Assembly (NCBI GenBank): GCA_030265395.1
Contig: JARFYF010000058.1
Span: 21,000,021-21,064,020 of the forward strand
Reading direction: 5' to 3'
Length of the DNA stretch: 64,000 nucleotides
DNA from: Rhina ancylostomus
Taxonomy: Eukaryota
Below, in pieces: positions 2,311-41,600 of this stretch. The notes under the pieces were generated by a model. The model saw only the letters and a list, made by a program, of their open reading frames with translations, did not search any database and was not told the DNA's origin. Both the position numbers and the translations under genes were made by a program. The stretch's first letter is position 1. Each line of letters starts with the position of its first letter.

Positions 2311-2514
2311 TTTGAGCAAGTTTGTTGAAAGGTGCACTCTGTCCTGGCATTTTCGAGCTTGCTGTAAGTTGTGACTTACAGAGCTCTCAGAGCAAGCAAG
2401 GGTGTAAAAACATTGAGCTGAGAAGCTCCTGTGGGTAAATTTGTGGTGTTTTGTGTGAAAATGTTCAAAATCTTTAAACAGCGTCTGTGATTGTGACCAA
2501 CTCATGGAATGTGG

Positions 2515-2750
2515 TTTCGTGGAGTTATACAGCGCAGAATCAGGACCCTTGGCCCAACCCGTCCATGCCGACCAAGTTGCCTTTCTGCGCTCGTCCCATT
2601 TGCCTGCATTTGGCCCTTATCCCTCTGAACTTTTCCTATCCATGTAACCATGCAAATTCTTTTAAACTCTGTAATTGTGCCCACCACTACCATTTCCTCT
2701 GGCAGTTGGTTCCATATTTGCACCACTCTCTGTATGAAATACATGGCCTT
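2515..2750 (-). mobile_element. CR1-type LINE 3' end
   Basis: Minus ORF YFIQRVVQIWNQLPEEMVVVGTITEFKR followed by a CR1-type 3' tail. Confidence 0.8.
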
Positions 2751-3059
2751 TAGATCTTTCCTCCTCCTCTAGTTTTAGGTTCCCCTGCCCTGACTTGAAA
2801 TGTTGACCACCTGCTTTTCTCCACGGATGCTGCCTGGCCTGCTGAGTTCCTCCAGCATCATCGTGTTTTTCAAAGTGAATAATAAACTGTAGTGGAGTGT
2901 GTATCACGTCGAATCTGAGTCTGGCATCTGCACTGTAGTAAAGGTGAATGGACCAACAGTTAATGTCCTGGAAGCCTGCTCACCCACTTGCTTGTTGACT
3001 TATTTCTTCTTCACCCTTCTGGTTGGAGCTGGTTCCAGATGTGCTCATGGTAGAGATAA

Positions 3060-3850
3060 TTCCAGCATTCATTCAGCAGGTCAGGCATCCTGAAACAGTT
3101 AATGCTTCATGTCCGGGGCACTTCATCAGAACTGGGAAAGAGAGAAAACAAGCTGGTTTTAGGCTGCCGAGCAGGTGGAAGAGGGATGGGTAGAACAAAG
3201 GGGGTATCTCTGATATGGTCAAACCGGATCATTAATGTGACAGTTAAGTAGCAGTTAAGATCAGTTTAAGTTTCATTATCTGTGCAGTGTGTGGCTAATT
3301 GTAAGGGTGTGGGATATGCCCAGCAGGCCAGACTGGAAAAGAAACAGAAAAGGCTGGCCAAAATGATGTTGTGCAGAAATAGGCATTTCTGATACAGACA
3401 AAGAGGGAGTTACCTAAAACTGCCTTCACCACTCCCTGGTCTGCTCTTCCACCCCTGCCCTACCACTCACCACTTAATGACACTTGCCCATTCAAGTCCT
3501 TTCACCTCTTCCTTACCCACCATCCATGGACCCAAACTGTCTTTCCCTGTGAAACAGTGATTCACTTGCACTTTTTCTGATCTATTGTACTGCAGGTGGT
3601 CACAATGTGACCTCCTCTACAGTGGAGAAGCCAGATGCAGATTTGCAGAGCCCAAGCGCTCAGTCCAGAGGAGTGACCCTGAGCTTCCTGTTGACTGCTG
3701 CTTTAATTCATCACTCCCATTCTGACAATTCTGTCTGTGGTCTCCTGCACTGCTCCGGTGGTGCCCAGTACAAGTCTGTGGAATATCTTCTGTCTGAACA
3801 TGTTGCAGTCTTCAGAATTCCATATAGAATTCTTCAACCTTAGGAACTCT
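3060..3850. mobile_element. Penelope-like fragments (terminal part on minus about 3060-3240; GIY-YIG remnant on plus about 3420-3850)
   Basis: ggacccaaactgtctttc, ttcacttgcact and cctcctctacagtggaga match the 137-350 remnant; hammerhead-like terminus at 3097-3133. Confidence 0.6.
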
Positions 3851-5011
3851 CTTTCTCTCTCTCTCTGTATCCAGACTAGTCACTTCTGCTTATCATTACT
3901 TTTTCAGACAAGGGTTTCTTATCAAGTCTCAATAACCTCAAGCAAATGGAAATGTTTCATAAACACAGCAGATCAGTGGCTGCATCTTAGATTATGACTT
4001 GGTTGGATACAGGGATAGACAATTCACCTGGTCCAGCCAAAACTATCACTCTAATCTTTCTCCAAATTTGACAGATTGGACAAAAAACTTGAAAGAAAAC
4101 TCTGTGGGCAGATTTAGTCAATGGTAAAGATCCAAATTAGCCAAAGGAGATGAAGAAGTGAAACCACATGCTGAGACTTTCAGTGTGAGGAAGAAGGGTC
4201 ACATTTGTAGATAATCTAAGGGGACAGAGTTTTCACAAATCTTTTCTTATGGATAATCTGAGGCAGGCACATGAAGGATAACTAAATGAAGAACGTGAAG
4301 TAATCTTGACTTGAGATAACAAAATCATTTAAAAAAAACTATCAAAACATGCACATAATTCTATCAAAGCTTGTACTAGATTTGTTGACCAAAACCATCA
4401 GTGATTGCTCAATTATGGTGTCACAAAATGTCTCCTGAGCAAAACACATAAGAACATTAAAAATATGGGCAAATGTAGACCTAACAACCCTGAGCCTCCT
4501 TCACCTTTCAATGTCATGTCCAAAAGCAATCATAGCTCAATAAATCTCAAAAATATGTTCTTCCCTCTCCTGAAACATGAAGTCATGGAAACTCTTTGTT
4601 CTGTGATTGTTATTACGCAAGCAGTAGCTCTTCATGTGGAAGCTTCACTGATGAATGTCAAACTCCATTTGGGTTTTGAGGGTCATTTCAGCTTCATTCA
4701 CGACCTGAATCCATCCATATCCCAACAGAGCCATTGCTTAATTATTCTGCTCTTTGCTGATGGGGCACAATGGCTAATCACGTTGCCCTTCCTGCCACAC
4801 TGACTGAGATCGACAAACTTAGTATCGATAAAGTCTGAAGCTGGGACTTTCCTGGTCTGCAAGGTTCAGTTCCACATTTGCAGCAACCTTATTCACTAAA
4901 CCAATTTATGCTTCCAAGTAGTTACCCAAGGAACAGGATGACAAAATCCACATTATTAATTGCACCCATAATCAAGGCAAGCATCCATTCAGTCACACTA
5001 AACACACCTAC

Positions 5012-5144
5012 CAAAATCCTTCATGCTGTCCGGGTCCGTCTCGTCCAAAAAGAAATAACCACACTTCACAGCTCGGTGCACCTCAAAACAGAGTCCCAGA
5101 CACGCATCGTCTACGAGATCAGAATAGATCTCATGAGCTATGGC
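5012..5144 (-). CDS. ATXN7L3: ATXN7L3 second coding exon ([11 protein letters not shown]...DSMKDF)
   Basis: 133 nt, gtttcag| acceptor and G|gtaggt donor, phase 0 to 1. Confidence 0.97.
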
Positions 5145-8100
5145 CTGAAACATAAAGCTCACAGGTAAACGGAAAGAGATCCACAATAAAAAACAGTCAT
5201 GAAGGAGGTTAACTGATTTGTCCTCAGACAAGCCAAAGGAAACCTAACAATCTCACTTCAAATATGCTTTCTTACTAAGGAATGCAGTTTCAAATATTAT
5301 CATTAGGGATTGCAAAATGATTAGCAACTTTCACTAAGATACTTAAATCAAGAAATTCTTGGGATCATTTTTTGAACTCTCTACCATGGTAAATAGCCTC
5401 AATGTGAAGCAGTGGAATACTGGTTTTCTGTCATTAGAGCACACCACACCAGAATCCTCTTGTGGGGCTCCTGGACATGTAACCTTTTGCATGCTTTGAA
5501 CTGACCTCTTAATCCCACATTAAATGGGTCCATGTGTCGCACTACCGGTTTTTAATTGGACCCAGCACCAAGTTGCATCATATTCCAATGGCTTTTCTGC
5601 AGAAAAGAGCAGCAAACCACAATATGTATATATAAAGGAATCATTATGAGCATGCAGTGAACTGAAAGGTGATGGCATAGAGGTGACACAGATCTACAAT
5701 TTTTCTACTGATATCACAAAACATCAGGATAACTATGGATGGCATTCAAGCCACTTGCAAAACTAAAAGGCTGAAAACATGCTGCCAGCAATGCTTCTAT
5801 AATTCTGATGGATCACAATTATCCTGTCCATGCCCATTCAAAGCCATGCACAATAACATCACTGTGATTCAGCTCATGCTTTTAAATCCCTGTCTGACAT
5901 CACCCATTCCTTGCCCAGCTAGTTACCCATTCTGACAATAAAACCCAGGCACATGGAGAAACACAAACAGCAGAGTAACTTCTGTGGAATTAGCTGTGGT
6001 TTGTTTCTCATTACCTAGCAGCATAATTTTGAGATTCCCATGGAGCACAACATATAGAAATAATGCACAATGAAGACAGGTAATGCCTGTACAGGTGCTT
6101 AGGAGCCTCAAGCTCACAGGGCTATCCCCATACTACCTACAAGCTGGTAGCCACAACTAAAAATACTGACTATTAGCCTATGAAACAGGAACTGGTGAAA
6201 GTCACATGGCCCCTTAATCCTGCTCCACCATTTAATATGAATGAACTGTTTCATCAACCACACTCTCCTTACATAACCCCATACCACTCAATTACCCTAG
6301 TGCTCAAGGATCCATTGGTCTTGAACATATTCAATGAATGATCATCCAGTAGGCTACTGGTTACAGAAATACAAAGATTCACAACCCACTGGATGAAAAA
6401 ATTTCTTCTCATCTCATACTAAACACTCATCCCCTCATCCTTAAGACTATGACGTTCAGTCACGATGGAGGTGAAGCCTCGTTAAGAAGCCCAGCCTTCT
6501 GGCAGTCACTCAGTGAAAAGCCACGTACAGTTTCACATGAATTACCGCTTCAAAAACAAAATTGCAAAAGATGAAGCAAAGAAATACACAGAAATCCAGC
6601 ATTGAAGACAGAACCTTTATTCAATCAGTGAACCATAAGTGCAGCCTCAACATAAAGAAATGTGTGATAAACATCAAAAGCATTCAACGCTGGGATACGC
6701 AAGCATGGTAGAGCAATGAAACGCACTGATAGAGAACAGAAGAGAGTTTTGGGGTTACTGGCCTGCTCTGCGGAACTTTCAGGGGTAGCATCAAACTCCA
6801 TGGCCTGGTCACTGTGCTCTCTGTTCATCTGCCTCTGGTCACGTTTCAGCTGCCGCCAGTATCTCTGCTTCTTCTCCGAAGAAACCCGCTTCAGCTTGGG
6901 CATGGCTGCAGAGTTCGCACTGAACGATTTTCTTATGAAACGACTTTGCTCGTCATCTGTTCTATCAGGTTAAGAGAACAGAAATTTAGGCCAATCTACA
7001 TCATGCCGAGAAGCTGAGCAAAATTATTCTAAGTTTAGTCAGTGCGAGTGGTCCACCTAGGCAGATTCAGTTCCCAAAGACTGTTATACACCCAGTGATT
7101 GGCACACACTAAAGAAACACTGACTAAAAGTAAAAGATCGAATCAGTCAGTGTACTCACCAATTAATCCAGATCCACTTTATTCACTTTCCATATCTGAG
7201 GAGCAGCTGGTATTCTGGACGAATATCTTCGCTTGTGACCAAAAAGAAATCTTCAAGATTTGCTCAGAGTTTTCTTTCCTCTGACCACAGAAAGCTCTAA
7301 AATGTAAAAAGAAGGTGCTATCCCATTGACTTCCTGCCATGGGATTGTCACAGTGGCAAGCTCACTTTGAAATTATCCATCAGCATTGAAGATTATATTC
7401 AATTCATGGAGATCAAGAATCTGTACACTCGGTTACAGAGAACAGCAGAGATCCGCAGGAGAACTTCACAGCAGATTACCAGATGCTTGAGACCGAACGA
7501 AGATGGCTTGCCAGGTGAGAGTTTAGCGTAACCCTCAATTAATTGCAGAAAATAAAATCAATGCACTGCAAATTTCTTGGTCTAACCTAACGCTCCTCTT
7601 TTTGAATTTTCATATACAGAATATTATAAATAAAAGGTCAGGATGCATATTTTGTAATGGTGCTCTTTGCGTGTGGTAGACCACATCCAGACAGTATCTT
7701 TGCCCATTTCTCAGAACATCAAAGCTTAAAAGATTAGGCAAAGTCTGCTCCTTAAACAAGATAAGTAGACTCTGTGGTTACTTCTACTCCATTTCCTAGG
7801 TGTCTTAGGATCACTCCAAGCCTTTTTATTTGATAACATGGGTCAGAGGTGAAATGCAACAGGCTAAAAATGCATCAAATGAAAGGCCTCCTACATGAAG
7901 AAGTGAGGTCAAGTCTGAGGAATAAGAAGAAACGCAGAGGAATGTCCAAGAGTAAGATTATCACAAGAATGATTGTGCACAAAAATGTCCATTGTCAAAC
8001 ATTAGAAATGAAAACATATCCTGAGATCAAAATTAATCCTGTAGATGGTTATTTAAGTGTTGTAAATGACTTTCACCATTTGCACCATACCTATAGGTGC

Positions 8101-8898
8101 CTGTGGAACCTGTAAAAATGGTGCCCTGGTGAGGGTCAGCTTCCCAGTAAGTTCAGCCACATTTCGCTATCCAATTCCCCTTACTGCGTCAGGCATGAAA
8201 GCAGCATCCTACTTTAATCCTTCAGAAAGACCAGATGAAGGAAATTTATTTTCGAGTGCATAACATGCACAGAGAAGCGCGGTCAACTGTAAACACTAAG
8301 AGTAACAGACAGATTCACACTGAGAGAAAGCAGAGACACGGGAAGAGATCAAAGAAAAGACAGCTGAGGGTGCATTCAAAAGGCTGTAATAAAATAAAGG
8401 GATATTGAAAAGGTCGTTAACAATACAGAGGAATTGGGAGCAGCTTACAGTTGAAAGAGGGACCCGAAATACATCAAAACCCAACAGGTATAAAACACAG
8501 ATAGCAACAAATAAACTGCCAGATTAATTTCTTTGCATCTGATGAAAACCCATGGTTATGACTTAAAGTGGCCTGAAGTAAGCCATTCATTTAGTATTCT
8601 TGAAATAATTCTTCTATATGTGTATTATGCACACAGATTACACGTACTCTCTCAATGACCATTCATGCATTCCTTCTAAACAAACACACATGGAACAGAT
8701 ACACACTTACCAGATGCTTATTCTCATAATGCACACAGACATCATCACTCATTAGATATATACATCCATGCACCATTAAAACCAAGCAAGCATACAATCC
8801 ACACCATATTTGTTATTGAAACAAGACAAATTCCCAAGTCTCCTTACCTCGGATTTGCTGTTCTCCAGGCCAGGTAACGACATTGCTTCCATTTTCAT
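5012..8898 (-). CDS. ATXN7L3: ATXN7L3 (ataxin-7-like 3, SAGA DUB module), 5' partial CDS; the remainder is not visible in this window
   Basis: Spliced translation [17 protein letters not shown]|[44 protein letters not shown] matches the ATXN7L3 N-terminus; the gene is adjacent to UBTF as in human. Confidence 0.96.
6625..6903 (-). CDS. Candidate nested small ORF in ATXN7L3 intron 2 ([25 protein letters not shown]...)
   Basis: GCAGCCATG Kozak context, upstream polypyrimidine tract with AG acceptors, protein-like charged N-terminal half, AATAAA at 6621-6616. Confidence 0.4.
   Translation of the reverse strand: MPKLKRVSSEKKQRYWRQLKRDQRQMNREHSDQAMEFDATPESSAEQASNPKTLFCSLSVRFIALPCLRIPALNAFDVYHTFLYVEAALMVH
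8848..8898 (-). CDS. ATXN7L3: ATXN7L3 first coding exon, coding part (exon about 8848-8959)
   Basis: ATG at 8898, 17 codons, donor GAG|gtaagg; acceptor ctttctctcag| gives exon start 8959. Confidence 0.93.
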
Positions 8899-10776
8899 TG
8901 GCGATCAGTATTGTGTACTATTTTCTTCCTACATAGTAACGAGGTGGTCACTGAGAATACTGAGAGAAAGTAATATGTTAGTTTAAAATGAGCACAGGAA
9001 ATTGAAACCTACATTTAACCAGGAGCAGCAGGTAAAACTAATTTGGGGGGTGGGGCAGGCGAGTTGGTGGAGAATCTATGCACTAACAAGCTTCACAATA
9101 GGACGTAGTACATACCGTAAGCTCGTATATTAATCTTACTATTAGTTATCATTAATTCTACCAGCTGACTTTATGCTCAATATTTCCAACGATTGAACTC
9201 TAGCTGTATGTAAAATGTAACTGTACTAAAATAAATAAATCATAATTTAGTCAATTTGAGGTGTACACAAATTTGAATTTAGTAGCCTTTCCATAAAAAC
9301 AGGCTTTATATGCTGTAACGATACACAAGAATATTCTATCGTTATCCATACATCATAATATATCTGAATCACAGAATGAACATAATACCTAGCCTTGTAA
9401 TCTTATTTTATGATTGCCAATGCTCTGTTGCAAACTTTTACTAATGAGAGCTGCAGGATTAGAACCAGCTCTAGACCTGGAGTTTCTTCACGTCAATCAA
9501 TTATTAGATCCCACGGATCTGGACATGGGAGAAAACAAGTTCTGAGGAAGGGTTGCTGACCCGAAAGATTGCCCGTTTTGCTTTCCACAGGTGCTGCTTG
9601 ACTGGCTGAGTTCTTCCAACATTTCGTTTTTCTGGACGTGGAAGATACAGAAATTTATCAGAAATCTGGTAAGCTGTCTGATTTTAGATGATTGAGCACC
9701 ACCCTCCAAAGGCATGGCTTTTGCCAACTTGCACTACAGCACCCTGGATTCCAAGAGTGAATGGGCAAATCCAGTTAAGTCTGGAGATACGCAGAGATGG
9801 TAACCAGGTGGAACACTATCATCAGGACTGATCAGAATTCTGTGTAACACATCAGACCATTTCAGTTCACATTTTAAAGATATAAAGAGTACTTTTTTTT
9901 CCTTTTCCCCATCCACAACTGTATCATTCACAAACATTTCTTCTGAAAAGATCTGGTATGCCATGGTTGTGTTCTGAGCCAGGAATGTTATTTCACCGAG
10001 CAGATGATTTTCTCTACCTCCCTGGATTGATGTTCCCCCTCTTTGCCTACATCTGCAGATTCATATCTCAGGCTGACTTCCAAACAGTATCTGCCAGACA
10101 GCACCACCCCCCCCCCCACCCCCCCACCACCCAACCCAACCCTCCTTACTCAGATCACTTCCCCTCAGCCTGGATTTGGGAGATCCTGCATTCTTTCATT
10201 TCGATGTTGCAGATTCAGACTCGATATCCTTCCCCTCCTTTCTCGGACGGTACCTGCAACCTCACCTTCTCAGTCTACCCTGGACATCCATCCCCATGCT
10301 GGACCGTACCTGGGACCTCTCCCTCAGATTGCATCCCTCACCCTCAGATTGCATCCCGCAAGATCGTCCCCTCTCCTCCCTTGGGTTTCCCCCTCTTCCC
10401 CATGCACCAAGGGTCTCTCAGTGGAGCAGATTCCCCCTCCCACCCACCGACCCCCCACCCCAACCTGTCCCCTGCGGACCCCTCTCTCNNNNNNNNNNNN
10501 NNNNNNNNNNNNNNNNNNNNNNNNNNNNNNNNNNNNNNNNNNNNNNNNNNNNNNNNNNNNNNNNNNNNNNNNNNNNNNNNNNNNNNNNNNNNNNNNNNNN
10601 NNNNNNNNNNNNNNNNNNNNNNNNNNNNNNNNNNNNNNNNNNNNNNNNNNNNNNNNNNNNNNNNNNNNNNNNNNNNNNNNNNNNNNNNNNNNNNNNNNNN
10701 NNNNNNNNNNNNNNNNNNNNNNNNNNNNNNNNNNNNNNNNNNNNNNNNNNNNNNNNNNNNNNNNNNNNNNNNNNNN

Positions 10777-11310
10777 CGAGCCGTGACAGTGCTGGAGGCG
10801 TTGCGATGGCAGCCGCAGCGGGTCCCCCCCCCTTCACCCCTGCTGCACCGGGCCCGCTCGTCTCCCCCCTCCCCTCCCCCGGCTGCTCGGCCGCCCGCCC
10901 GCTCTGCCCAGGCCGCGTGCGGCGTAACCTGAGAGCGGAAGCGCGTCACCGAGCCGACCGGCGATGGACGGGGGAGGCAGGCCAATGGGCGGCGGGCGCG
11001 GCCGACCAATTGGGTGGGTGGGCGGTGCCGCCTACTGCTCCGGGGGGCCCAGGAAGCTCCGGGAAGTTGCGCCGCGGGGAGGGAGGGGGGGATCGCCCCC
11101 ACGGTGGGGTGGGTGATGCACCCTCCCCTCCCGGTCATAGACACTCCCGCTGGAGCACGACTGCAAGTTCCGTCCTCGGCATTCTCTCTCCTCCCCCTTC
11201 AGTCAACCAGTGCTGGGCAGAGGTTTGGGATGCAAGATTCCTGGGCTGGGTTTGCACCCAGATCCCGGTGTCCGACCTGCTGCAACGCCCACCCACGTCC
11301 AGGGCGACTA
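10777..11310. promoter_or_regulatory. CpG island, probable ATXN7L3 promoter and first exon
   Basis: Very GC/CpG-rich segment about 1.9 kb upstream of the first coding exon; ETS-type CGGAAG near 10936, CCAAT near 10982 and 11006, GC boxes, X-box-like GTTGCGATGGCAGC at 10800-10813. The left edge is lost in an N gap. Confidence 0.8.
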
Positions 11311-38600: not shown

Positions 38601-41600
38601 ATTGTCACAACAACATGGCATCATTTAAAATACTTAAGGATTCCAGTACCACTGATTTCCTAAGCAATAGGTGACACAACACTTGAGCCAGACCAGGTCA
38701 CTGGTAGTAGGTCAAAAAAACCCATACCCACATACCACCAGTTTAAACATTCCAATAAATTTGAAGCATCTCCAGAGGAAAACGACAGCATCCCTTAAAA
38801 GTCTACAGAGGCCATCATAAAACAATAATTGGTGCAAGATGTCTCCGAGTCCTGGGCAGAAAACGAACACCAGAACAAGAGACTCCCTTTCAACTCCAAT
38901 GTATCGAACACTGAGAAAGCTTTATAGGAATAGCTGCTGACCTTAACCATCCAATTCCTNNNNNNNNNNNNNNNNNNNNNNNNNNNNNNNNNNNNNNNNN
39001 NNNNNNNNNNNNNNNNNNNNNNNNNNNNNNNNNNNNNNNNNNNNNNNNNNNNNNNNNNNGAATAGCTGCTGACCTTAACCATCCAATTCCTGTTTTTCTG
39101 GCATGGACAGAACTGTAAAACCTGGTGAAAATTCAGTTACATATACAATACCCAACAGACACACATTAAATCTATTTCCCTCCCCACAGATACTGCCTGG
39201 CCTGAGTGTTTCCAGCATTTAACTGTTTTTTCTAAACCCAGTGAAGGAAGCTGGTTTGTGAAGCTTTATCCTCAATTTGTAATGGAAAAAACCCTTCAGC
39301 GAAAGCAACTAGGGACAACAGAGCAGCAACCACTACAATGAAATTGGATCAGGAAACTAAACCAAACCATGCCTAATTTATATATAGATGGTCAAACAAA
39401 AAAAAGTGCAAAACCCAAGGTTTTACAATCTAGATCACTATCCTAACTTCACATTTAATGCAACTCCAGACCCAATTAAAAACATGGATTTTAAAACCAA
39501 AATATACCAGATGAAGCAACAATCTGCTTGAGGAACTCAACAGTTTAAGCAGCATCTCTGGGAGGGAAGGAAATGTCAACTTTTCTCATCAAAACCCGGC
39601 ATCAGGATCTCAGTATATTCAAGATGAACACCTGCCTAATAGGATGCACCAACCCTGTAAACATTTGTATCACCTGGACCTCTTACATATACGGTAGGAC
39701 ATTAGGATAATCCTAGATTCAGTTTCACACTAAATAAGGCAAAAATCAACAATTAATGTATCATAATTGAACTGAATGCTCCTGGATATTGTATGTTTTA
39801 TGGAACATGTCTGAATGAGGTGAAGGAAAGGCATATGCCTGGTTTTTAGTGACACCTACCATAGCACGCAGATTATTAACAATGTTTAGAAATCAGAGGA
39901 TCAAAAATATAACCCAGCATCAGCACTTTGGGGAGGAATAATGATTGACTCAGTGTTCTCAGGTTGCAATAATACAGTATCACTTGAGATAACCATTGCA
40001 TAAATGCTGAACAAAATATTGCAAAGCAGAAACACAAAATTTGATGTCAGAAGCAAGCTTAGCTTAAGCTTCCAACATTAAAACTGGACACCTTGTGCAC
40101 CAAACCTGTGTGCTCACAGATTGATCAATTTCCATATAAATTTTTTATGGGAAAATTCCATATCACCACAAATGAAAGTGAAACTACCTGTCCAAAAACA
40201 AAATTACGCACCTTGGTGGCATCTGAAGGAGACGAGGGGACGCCTTTGACTCCACCCTGCTTCAGGTTGCTTGCTGCTTTTTTGTTTAATCCAATCATCT
40301 TTTCCTCAGACAGGACTCTCTGCTGTTCATGTTCAGGGAGGCTCTGCCATAGGACAATAAAAGCTTAATTTTGCAAGATGAAAATCCTACTACATAGTAC
40401 AGAATTACTGCAGTCCCAACAGCAAACATCTTTGCAGCTTCACCAAAGAGAAATGGAACAATTTGTTCTATTCATTCCTGGCTCTTTCAAACTACAATTA
40501 AATGATGCAAACAAAAAGTGACACCTACCAGCAAAAACCGATGAAGATTAATTTCATATTCCTTCTTTTTCTGTGGGAAATAAACAAATGATTTAAGTTA
40601 TTAGAGTGCTGATGCCTGTATTCGGTAACAATAGTCTTCGCTTCCAAATCCATTACAAGTCCAAGTTGTGTCAGTTTAAACATTTAGAATCATGTCCTAA
40701 CTTCCTAATCCCCAGTAACAGCTAACATGCAATATCATACGTCATCCTACAGCTTGAGACTCACCCCATTATTCCCCTCTTTATGGATGTAAACTATAAA
40801 ATCATTCAGGACAAATGAGGAATATAAAAGGTAACTTTTAAGATTACCAGTTATTGTTGAGTCAACAGATTAAAAAATAATGAATGCTTCCGTCAATAGC
40901 TTTCCACATCAGATTTCAAAAGTGCAATGAGATGCCACCACACTGACCTGCTCACATCGTTTCTGATATGCATCCTTCTCTTTCTGAGACAGCATCTTCC
41001 ACTGCTTGCTGCACAGAACCATGCGTTCTGTGCTGGGAATATCTTTCATGTTGGACATCAGTTCAGCACAATAAAGAGAATAACCATTTCTGAAAACAAG
41101 AGGAAGTGGTAAGGTACAGTTGTACATTTGAAACATTATATAAATCAGTATTGATACAATAATACTGGCAAGTAGAACCTCCCTGGGACCATCACAAATC
41201 CATGGTGATGCAAGGCAAGTTATGACAAGATCAGAAACTTTGAGGAAATATTGTTAGGTTAAGTGGGAGCACAGAACTTTTAACAGATGGGATTTCAATG
41301 CAGGTGGCCAAGAGACCAGTGTGTTCAAATGGTGAAAATTTAAGACTAATGAACATCTATTTAAACCACCAAGATGTTGTAGTAGTCAGATTCAAGAAAA
41401 AAAAAATTAAAGAAAGGTGGCTTATGATATGGTGGGCTCCATAACTACAGGGGAGAAAGTTTTACCACATCAGTGTAGAGACCTGGTTAAACTGCATCTA
41501 GAGATCAATGTACAGTTCTTGCCATTTCAACAAAGTTCATAGTGGTCTTGGAAATCATGCATACAGACTTAAGTTGCCAAGACTCCATTATGGAGAGAGA

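Follow-up and report, generated by a model that had tools for sequence, protein, structure and literature searches.

An ancient optional exon of cartilaginous-fish ATXN7L3 ends the canonical frame and probably supplies a new start for the full-length protein

ATXN7L3/Sgf11 is described as a subunit of the SAGA deubiquitination module, together with USP22, ENY2 and ATXN7, and of the USP27X and USP51 complexes (PMC8080568; 10.1101/2021.05.13.444038). Within the H2B-deubiquitinating module it is reported to be a central, non-redundant part (PMC10676324), and Sus1 is described as binding the Sgf11 helix (PMC8080568). The mammalian retrocopy ATXN7L3B is presented as a case of diversification around the ENY2-binding N-terminal region of ATXN7L3-type proteins (PMC10676324). 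ATXN7L3B is a separate, cytoplasmic gene competing for ENY2, whereas shark ATXN7L3 is one gene with a full-length form carrying an added front end. As in the ATXN7L3/Sgf11 family, both zinc fingers (Sgf11 and SCA7) lie downstream and in frame here too. Compared with known ATXN7L3/Sgf11 proteins, the difference is a basic N-terminal extension without a match outside cartilaginous fishes (among cluster representatives) or in solved structures. Splice-dependent uORFs and reinitiation have been described in general (PMC13631847). Set beside other uORFs and alternative starts made by splicing, ATXN7L3 differs in that inclusion of a single cassette exon reduces the ancestral start to a uORF and would also bring in another start, which is in frame and opens a deeply conserved peptide.

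The same 47-residue start is present in RefSeq models of cartilaginous fishes named 'ataxin-7-like protein 3 isoform X1', where 36–45 of the 47 residues are identical to those of the window (the whole 64-kb stretch of DNA analysed here) and the segment runs in phase 0 into the same exon. Examples are XP_051894686.1 of Pristis pectinata, XP_032891245.1 of Amblyraja radiata, XP_048416367.1 of Stegostoma tigrinum and XP_007899721.1 of Callorhinchus milii. By sequence match, the optional exon at 6763–6961 is the genomic exon behind these models. The models offer no mechanism and, being automatic, do not constitute independent proof of translation; those of skates start 11 codons earlier, and Narcine models start in another exon. 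A literature search, with supplements and subscription journals outside its scope, found no study of a long ATXN7L3 isoform or of such a start-swap case. The start-swapping exon of this SAGA subunit is real and ancient, and it is already listed in automatic gene models.

In the window the exon lies on the minus strand, between the canonical ATXN7L3 start exon (8962–8848) and exon 5144–5012. Translation of a full-length ATXN7L3 with a different, predicted N-terminus of 47 residues likely begins at its ATG, at 6903. The other exons of the gene lie farther along the same contig, and all of them are found on one contig of the genome assembly (G000). The features are listed below in the order of transcription.

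10777–10898, minus strand: part of the non-coding first exon, lying in a GC-rich promoter region and extending into an N gap; joined to 8962 in one contig of run X2.
8848–8962, minus strand: canonical start exon; ATG at 8898, 17 codons; spliced to 5144 (skipping) or to 6961 (inclusion).
6962–6990, minus strand: pyrimidine tract and used acceptor AG (6963–6962), from sequence and reads.
6763–6961, minus strand: optional (cassette) exon, whose 199 nt are not divisible by three; joined at both ends in spliced reads of organism B.
6953–6955, minus strand: TGA closing the canonical frame on inclusion, leaving a 19-aa uORF from ATG 8898 (translation of read-supported exon joins).
6763–6903, minus strand: probable new coding start; ATG at 6903 within GCAGCCATG, 47 codons, in frame with the exon at 5144.
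6757–6765, minus strand: GC-type 5' splice site; exon end at 6763, intron GC starting at 6762, phase 0; 7/9 consensus matches.
5145–6762, minus strand: GC-AG intron of 1618 nt; junction placement from reads.
5012–5144, minus strand: next exon, common to both forms; codes for a helix (residues 44–74 in a low-confidence structure model).

We take the helix coded by exon 5144–5012 to bind ENY2, by homology to Sgf11–Sus1. The first-pass annotation had proposed a hidden exon in this ATXN7L3 intron from a set of minus-strand sequence features, all of which are present: tandem acceptors, GCAGCCATG at 6903, an ORF with its TGA, an AATAAA hexamer and a GT at 6758. The exon itself was confirmed by spliced RNA reads from organism B.

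No RNA run of the window's own sequence was among those listed, and RNA evidence came from 5 of the 23 listed runs, all from relatives of the window species (organisms A and B). Three of these were raw runs of organism B from one study, of which 18–24% of each was read, with counts in the tens of reads. The inclusion join from 8848 to 6961 (GT-AG) was carried by 9 reads (6/1/2) and was found in all three raw runs; 3 more short loose ends in run X22 match it. The downstream join from 6763 to 5144 was carried by 15 reads (6/5/4), again in 3/3 raw runs, and recurred in contigs of runs X2 (organism B) and X1 (organism A). Skipping, in which the canonical exon is joined directly to 5144, was seen in 10 reads of organism B (3/0/7). 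Pooled inclusion was about 0.55, and 0.67, 1.0 and 0.30 by run, all from small counts. The first mate of every junction read mapped to the plus strand, as expected of minus-strand RNA. In organism B the exon is thus spliced to both an upstream and a downstream exon and is also skipped, as a cassette exon is. Tandem AG acceptors precede positions 6961 and 6956 on the minus strand, and 15 of 22 bases in the tract upstream are pyrimidines. Both acceptors had been put forward as candidates: the one before 6961 is used (9 reads, 3/3 raw runs), and no join to 6956 was among those listed in the organism B raw runs.

The exon leaves through an unusual donor. An identical 7-mer stands at both ends of the intron and allows the downstream join to slide by 7 letters. 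Just one of the eight resulting placements gives a known donor together with an AG end, namely GC at 6762 with the next exon beginning at 5144, and the donor is therefore the GC at 6762. This site matches the donor consensus at 7/9 positions; a GT four bases on, at 6758, matches at 5/9. The GT is incidental, and the GC donor had been missed earlier. GC-AG introns are reported to make up about 0.8% of coding-gene junctions and to be enriched in alternative splicing (PMC7242645). The intron downstream of the optional ATXN7L3 exon, with its GC start and AG end, belongs to this rare class.

Inclusion changes which ATG can lead into the body of the protein. The canonical ATG at 8898 then opens 19 codons and meets a stop at 6955–6953, 49 nt upstream of ATG 6903. 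The canonical frame is lost with either acceptor, ending after 19 aa (6961) or 24 aa (6956), and translation of the joins bore out the earlier claim that the canonical start exon, being out of frame with both acceptors, becomes a uORF on inclusion. The frame containing ATG 6903 is open from 6969. From the ATG to the donor, the 141 nt at 6903–6763 make 47 codons; the exon at 5144 follows in phase 0, and all later exons are in the same frame. In the predicted protein the 47-aa basic/acidic start replaces the 17-aa start, and the helix exon and both zinc fingers are kept. Residues 1–30 hold 11 K/R and 3 D/E, and residues 31–47 hold no K/R and 5 D/E. The short form (P0049) measures 339 aa and the long form (P0026) 369 aa. 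Pfam recognized Sgf11 (PF08209, 63.8 bits) and SCA7 (PF08313, 31.3 bits) in P0026, and both domains pass cut-offs in both forms. At least five upstream ATGs precede ATG 6903 in the inclusion mRNA, so output of the long form may be low. Two differences from relatives were seen within the reading frame. An in-frame ATG found 11 codons ahead of 6903 in skate models (P0004, P0010) and in run X1 corresponds to ATA in the window (6934–6936), and skates may therefore start the long form earlier. Codon 14, at 6863, codes for Arg in the window, whereas 16/16 compared orthologues and the reads of organisms A and B have Lys, a lineage-specific conservative change.

The start peptide was compared within a set of 52 proteins, for which 15/19, 15/17, 15/25, 1/1 and 3/3 members of the clusters were listed. 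The set comprises 27 long forms, 17 canonical-start forms and 8 proteins excluded from counts (3 read-through ORFs, and 5 that are truncated or divergent). At least 27 long-form proteins, from at least 18 named species, are among the listed members, spanning skates, rays, sharks and the chimaera Callorhinchus. All 27 place the 47-aa start at identical spacing to the ATXN7L3 body. Against 16 named orthologous models, the window start shares 36–45 of 47 residues with each. Across these 17 sequences 30/47 positions are invariant, and the ATG at 6903 pointed out in the first-pass annotation thus opens a conserved peptide; 22 of the invariant positions fall in the first 25 residues and 8 in the last 22 (residues 26–47). 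The canonical 17-aa start is invariant at 9/17 positions in 14 sequences. Between Pristis and Callorhinchus, 23/25 residues of the basic part and 262/278 of the body after residue 91 are identical. Their split is dated to 421 Ma, and cartilaginous fishes are described as slow-evolving (PMC3692497). Because evolution is slow and the flanking intron is itself well conserved, part of the identity in the exon is background. As a control for this background, the window was compared with P0001: 45/47 residues are identical in the exon and 62/78 in the translation of the intron directly beyond (Fisher p = 0.016). At least six base differences were listed in the coding part (3 silent, 3 replacing), too few for dN/dS.

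The stretch 6763–6961 is beyond chance, being both spliced and conserved. CpG observed/expected is 0.70 in 6800–6949, which by itself is weak evidence because the next coding exon has 0.88 and other 150-nt bins of the intron range from 0 to 0.75. The exon region is single-copy in G000, with one match each for DNA 6500–7100, the 112-aa frame and DNA 7100–7950, although an absent match is no proof of rarity. An Rfam scan of 4900–9100 gave no match at E ≤ 1, and the RNA fold of 6730–7000 was not unusual (z = 0.11), so neither an RNA family nor an unusual fold accounts for the conservation of the exon. At the protein level, the 47-aa and 92-aa peptides read from ATG 6903 matched no Pfam family, and residues 1–47 had no match to any solved structure in the PDB. 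All ESM Atlas matches scored below 0.8; the top three (0.76–0.79) were phage clusters and below the useful range. A search of 1.84 billion representatives returned P0001 as the sole match and missed known shark isoforms too, and is therefore silent on bony vertebrates. When residues 1–47 were searched against cluster representatives of 202–646 aa, 5/5 matches were to cartilaginous fishes, a weak negative since representatives may be short forms. No bony-vertebrate match to the 47-aa start was found in these searches, a weak test that covers cluster representatives only. Further small optional insertions were noted in the cartilaginous-fish ATXN7L3 models P0004, P0012, P0029 and P0047 (9 aa in skates and Narcine, 25 aa in Rhincodon and a longer Scyliorhinus form), which indicate that the gene has several alternative segments.

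Taken as a mechanism, these observations probably reflect a switch of start codons. In the RNA of a relative the canonical start exon is spliced to 6961, and the exon leaves through the GC donor to the 5144 exon. Ribosomes would then arrive at ATG 6903 either through leaky scanning or by reinitiating past the short uORF, and splicing would act as the switch between a 17-aa and a 47-aa N-terminus. Inclusion would probably lower total output. The long form would still join the SAGA deubiquitination module, because inclusion leaves the presumed ENY2-binding helix and both zinc fingers (Sgf11 and SCA7) as they are. The role of the new segment itself is the least certain point: its conserved basic first 25 residues may fold as a helix and act as an additional import signal or as a contact to DNA, nucleosome or a partner. 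A structure prediction (AlphaFold, 16 sequences) gave a mean pLDDT of 35, with a helix at residues 9–32 at about 50. Classical nuclear localization signals follow the pattern K-K/R-x-K/R or are bipartite. The monopartite pattern was found in 17/17 sequences and the bipartite one in 16/17 (it fails in Callorhinchus), as pattern matches only, and the short form already holds six NLS-like motifs.

A second full-length form that accounts for about half of junction reads, with a front end conserved like the protein core, points to an unstudied tuning of the H2B-deubiquitinating module. The locus also offers a clean natural case in which one exon makes a gene's own start a uORF and provides a new one. 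Its reach is limited, as automatic gene models already list the isoform and the searches turned it up in no group other than cartilaginous fishes. We tentatively suggest, while doubting that all of it will hold, that for more than 400 million years a splice-controlled start swap has built a second type of H2B-deubiquitinating module in cartilaginous fishes. The extra basic helix of long ATXN7L3 would retarget USP22, USP27X and USP51 complexes on chromatin, or recruit a new partner, tissue by tissue. The exon could in that case be an ancestral feature of jawed vertebrates, lost or unannotated in bony vertebrates.

The same long protein could be made mainly from an intronic promoter or a retained intron upstream of 6961; the exon would then work as an alternative first exon, with a secondary part for the uORF switch. 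A contig of run X1 is unspliced from 7449 to the end of the exon and continues into the 5144 exon, a contig of X2 spans 7160–7914, and downstream junction reads number 15 against 9–12 upstream. Several gene models per species yield an identical protein, and Narcine models begin in another upstream exon. We consider this route unlikely as the main one. The 8848 to 6961 join was present in 3/3 raw runs, with zero depth at 7002–7262 in all three; contigs cannot reveal starts, and unspliced pre-mRNA fits them equally. Since the product is identical, the difference from a start swap by cassette splicing is one of route only, and the unspliced X1 contig and the Narcine models mean that the long form may arise by more than one 5' route. 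The intron at 6962–7914 is well conserved in relatives (29 other letters in the X2 contig at 7160–7914; 54 other letters and 7 gaps in the X1 contig at 6760–7449). It is single-copy, has no Rfam match and shows RNA depth of up to 7 in run X23 at 7263–7610; it is a possible splicing-control region, retained intron or intronic start.

A second alternative gives the exon a regulatory task, as a conserved poison or uORF-forming exon whose inclusion silences the canonical start and lowers ATXN7L3, with little or no protein made from ATG 6903. Its 199-nt length, the stop it brings to the canonical frame, the several upstream ATGs ahead of 6903 and a flanking intron conserved as around regulated exons would all suit such a task. 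It would leave unexplained, however, the ATG itself, the fixed 47-codon in-frame length and the 22/25 invariant residues of the basic part over about 421 My. Inclusion joins were about as common as skip joins, and a structured RNA signal was not found by Rfam or fold z-score. As the whole explanation we regard it as quite improbable; its effect can coexist with the start swap as a side effect.

The first-pass annotation had favoured an intronically polyadenylated transcript encoding an unrelated 92-aa microprotein. The tail on which that reading depends lies past the donor.

6616–6762, minus strand: intronic read-through tail of the 92-aa ORF, with AATAAA; present, probably not functional.

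The sequence elements do exist: the 92-codon ORF from ATG 6903 ends at a TGA at 6627–6625, with AATAAA at 6621–6616 on the minus strand, and run X22 has a depth of 1.5 at 6654–6740, past the donor. Human and mouse genes with GC-AG introns are also reported to have alternative last exons more often (PMC7242645). The claim nevertheless fared poorly. Conservation of the frame ends at the donor, and in 3/3 read-through ORFs (P0001–P0003) the tail is frameshifted and of other lengths. The AATAAA is absent from P0001 and P0002, the 2/2 that extend this far, where translation points to a Trp codon at the hexamer's first base. Depth past the donor was 0/1.5/0 in the three runs at 6654–6740 and 0 by 6566, against an intronic background of up to 7 elsewhere, and no pile-up of 3' ends was seen past the donor in organism B at its low depth of tens of reads. 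The hexamer at 6621–6616 appears incidental, since AATAAA occurs four times in the 3.7-kb intron. We therefore judge the microprotein very unlikely, a minor form of the polyadenylated transcript being possible given the low depth and the use of other species.

Another suggestion had been that splicing from the GT at 6758 into the third coding exon removes the ENY2-binding region. The GT is present and the third coding exon is in phase 1. That exon lies outside the stretch used for read mapping, and joins to it were judged from loose ends at the donor: every one of those listed, from 6, 5 and 4 reads plus a single contig, continues into the next exon instead. Placed at the GT, a weak 5/9 donor, the observed intron would end in CA, and the helix exon is kept in 27/27 long-form proteins. 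Reads and models instead agree that the GC donor, in phase 0, is spliced to the exon directly following, leaving the deletion extremely improbable. Transposon proteins often have short N-termini that are basic and helical, so ancient exaptation could be imagined, but origin as a transposon fragment or chance ORF is scarcely credible for an exon that is spliced, conserved and single-copy in G000, with no Pfam family, one match (P0001) in 1.84 billion representatives and ESM Atlas scores all below 0.8. A multicopy transposon as a present element was rejected on the single copy, the lack of a transposon protein match in these searches, splicing and conservation.

Two further features of the window were observed. 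An HMG-box exon at 40909–41253 on the minus strand (PF09011, 24.4 bits) probably belongs to UBTF, which lies upstream of ATXN7L3 in human too. Reads piled up on both strands at 2400–3800, 6265–6560 and 9424–10476, which mark high-copy repeats in introns; we take the repeat at about 6330–6460 to resemble a CR1/LINE 3' end.
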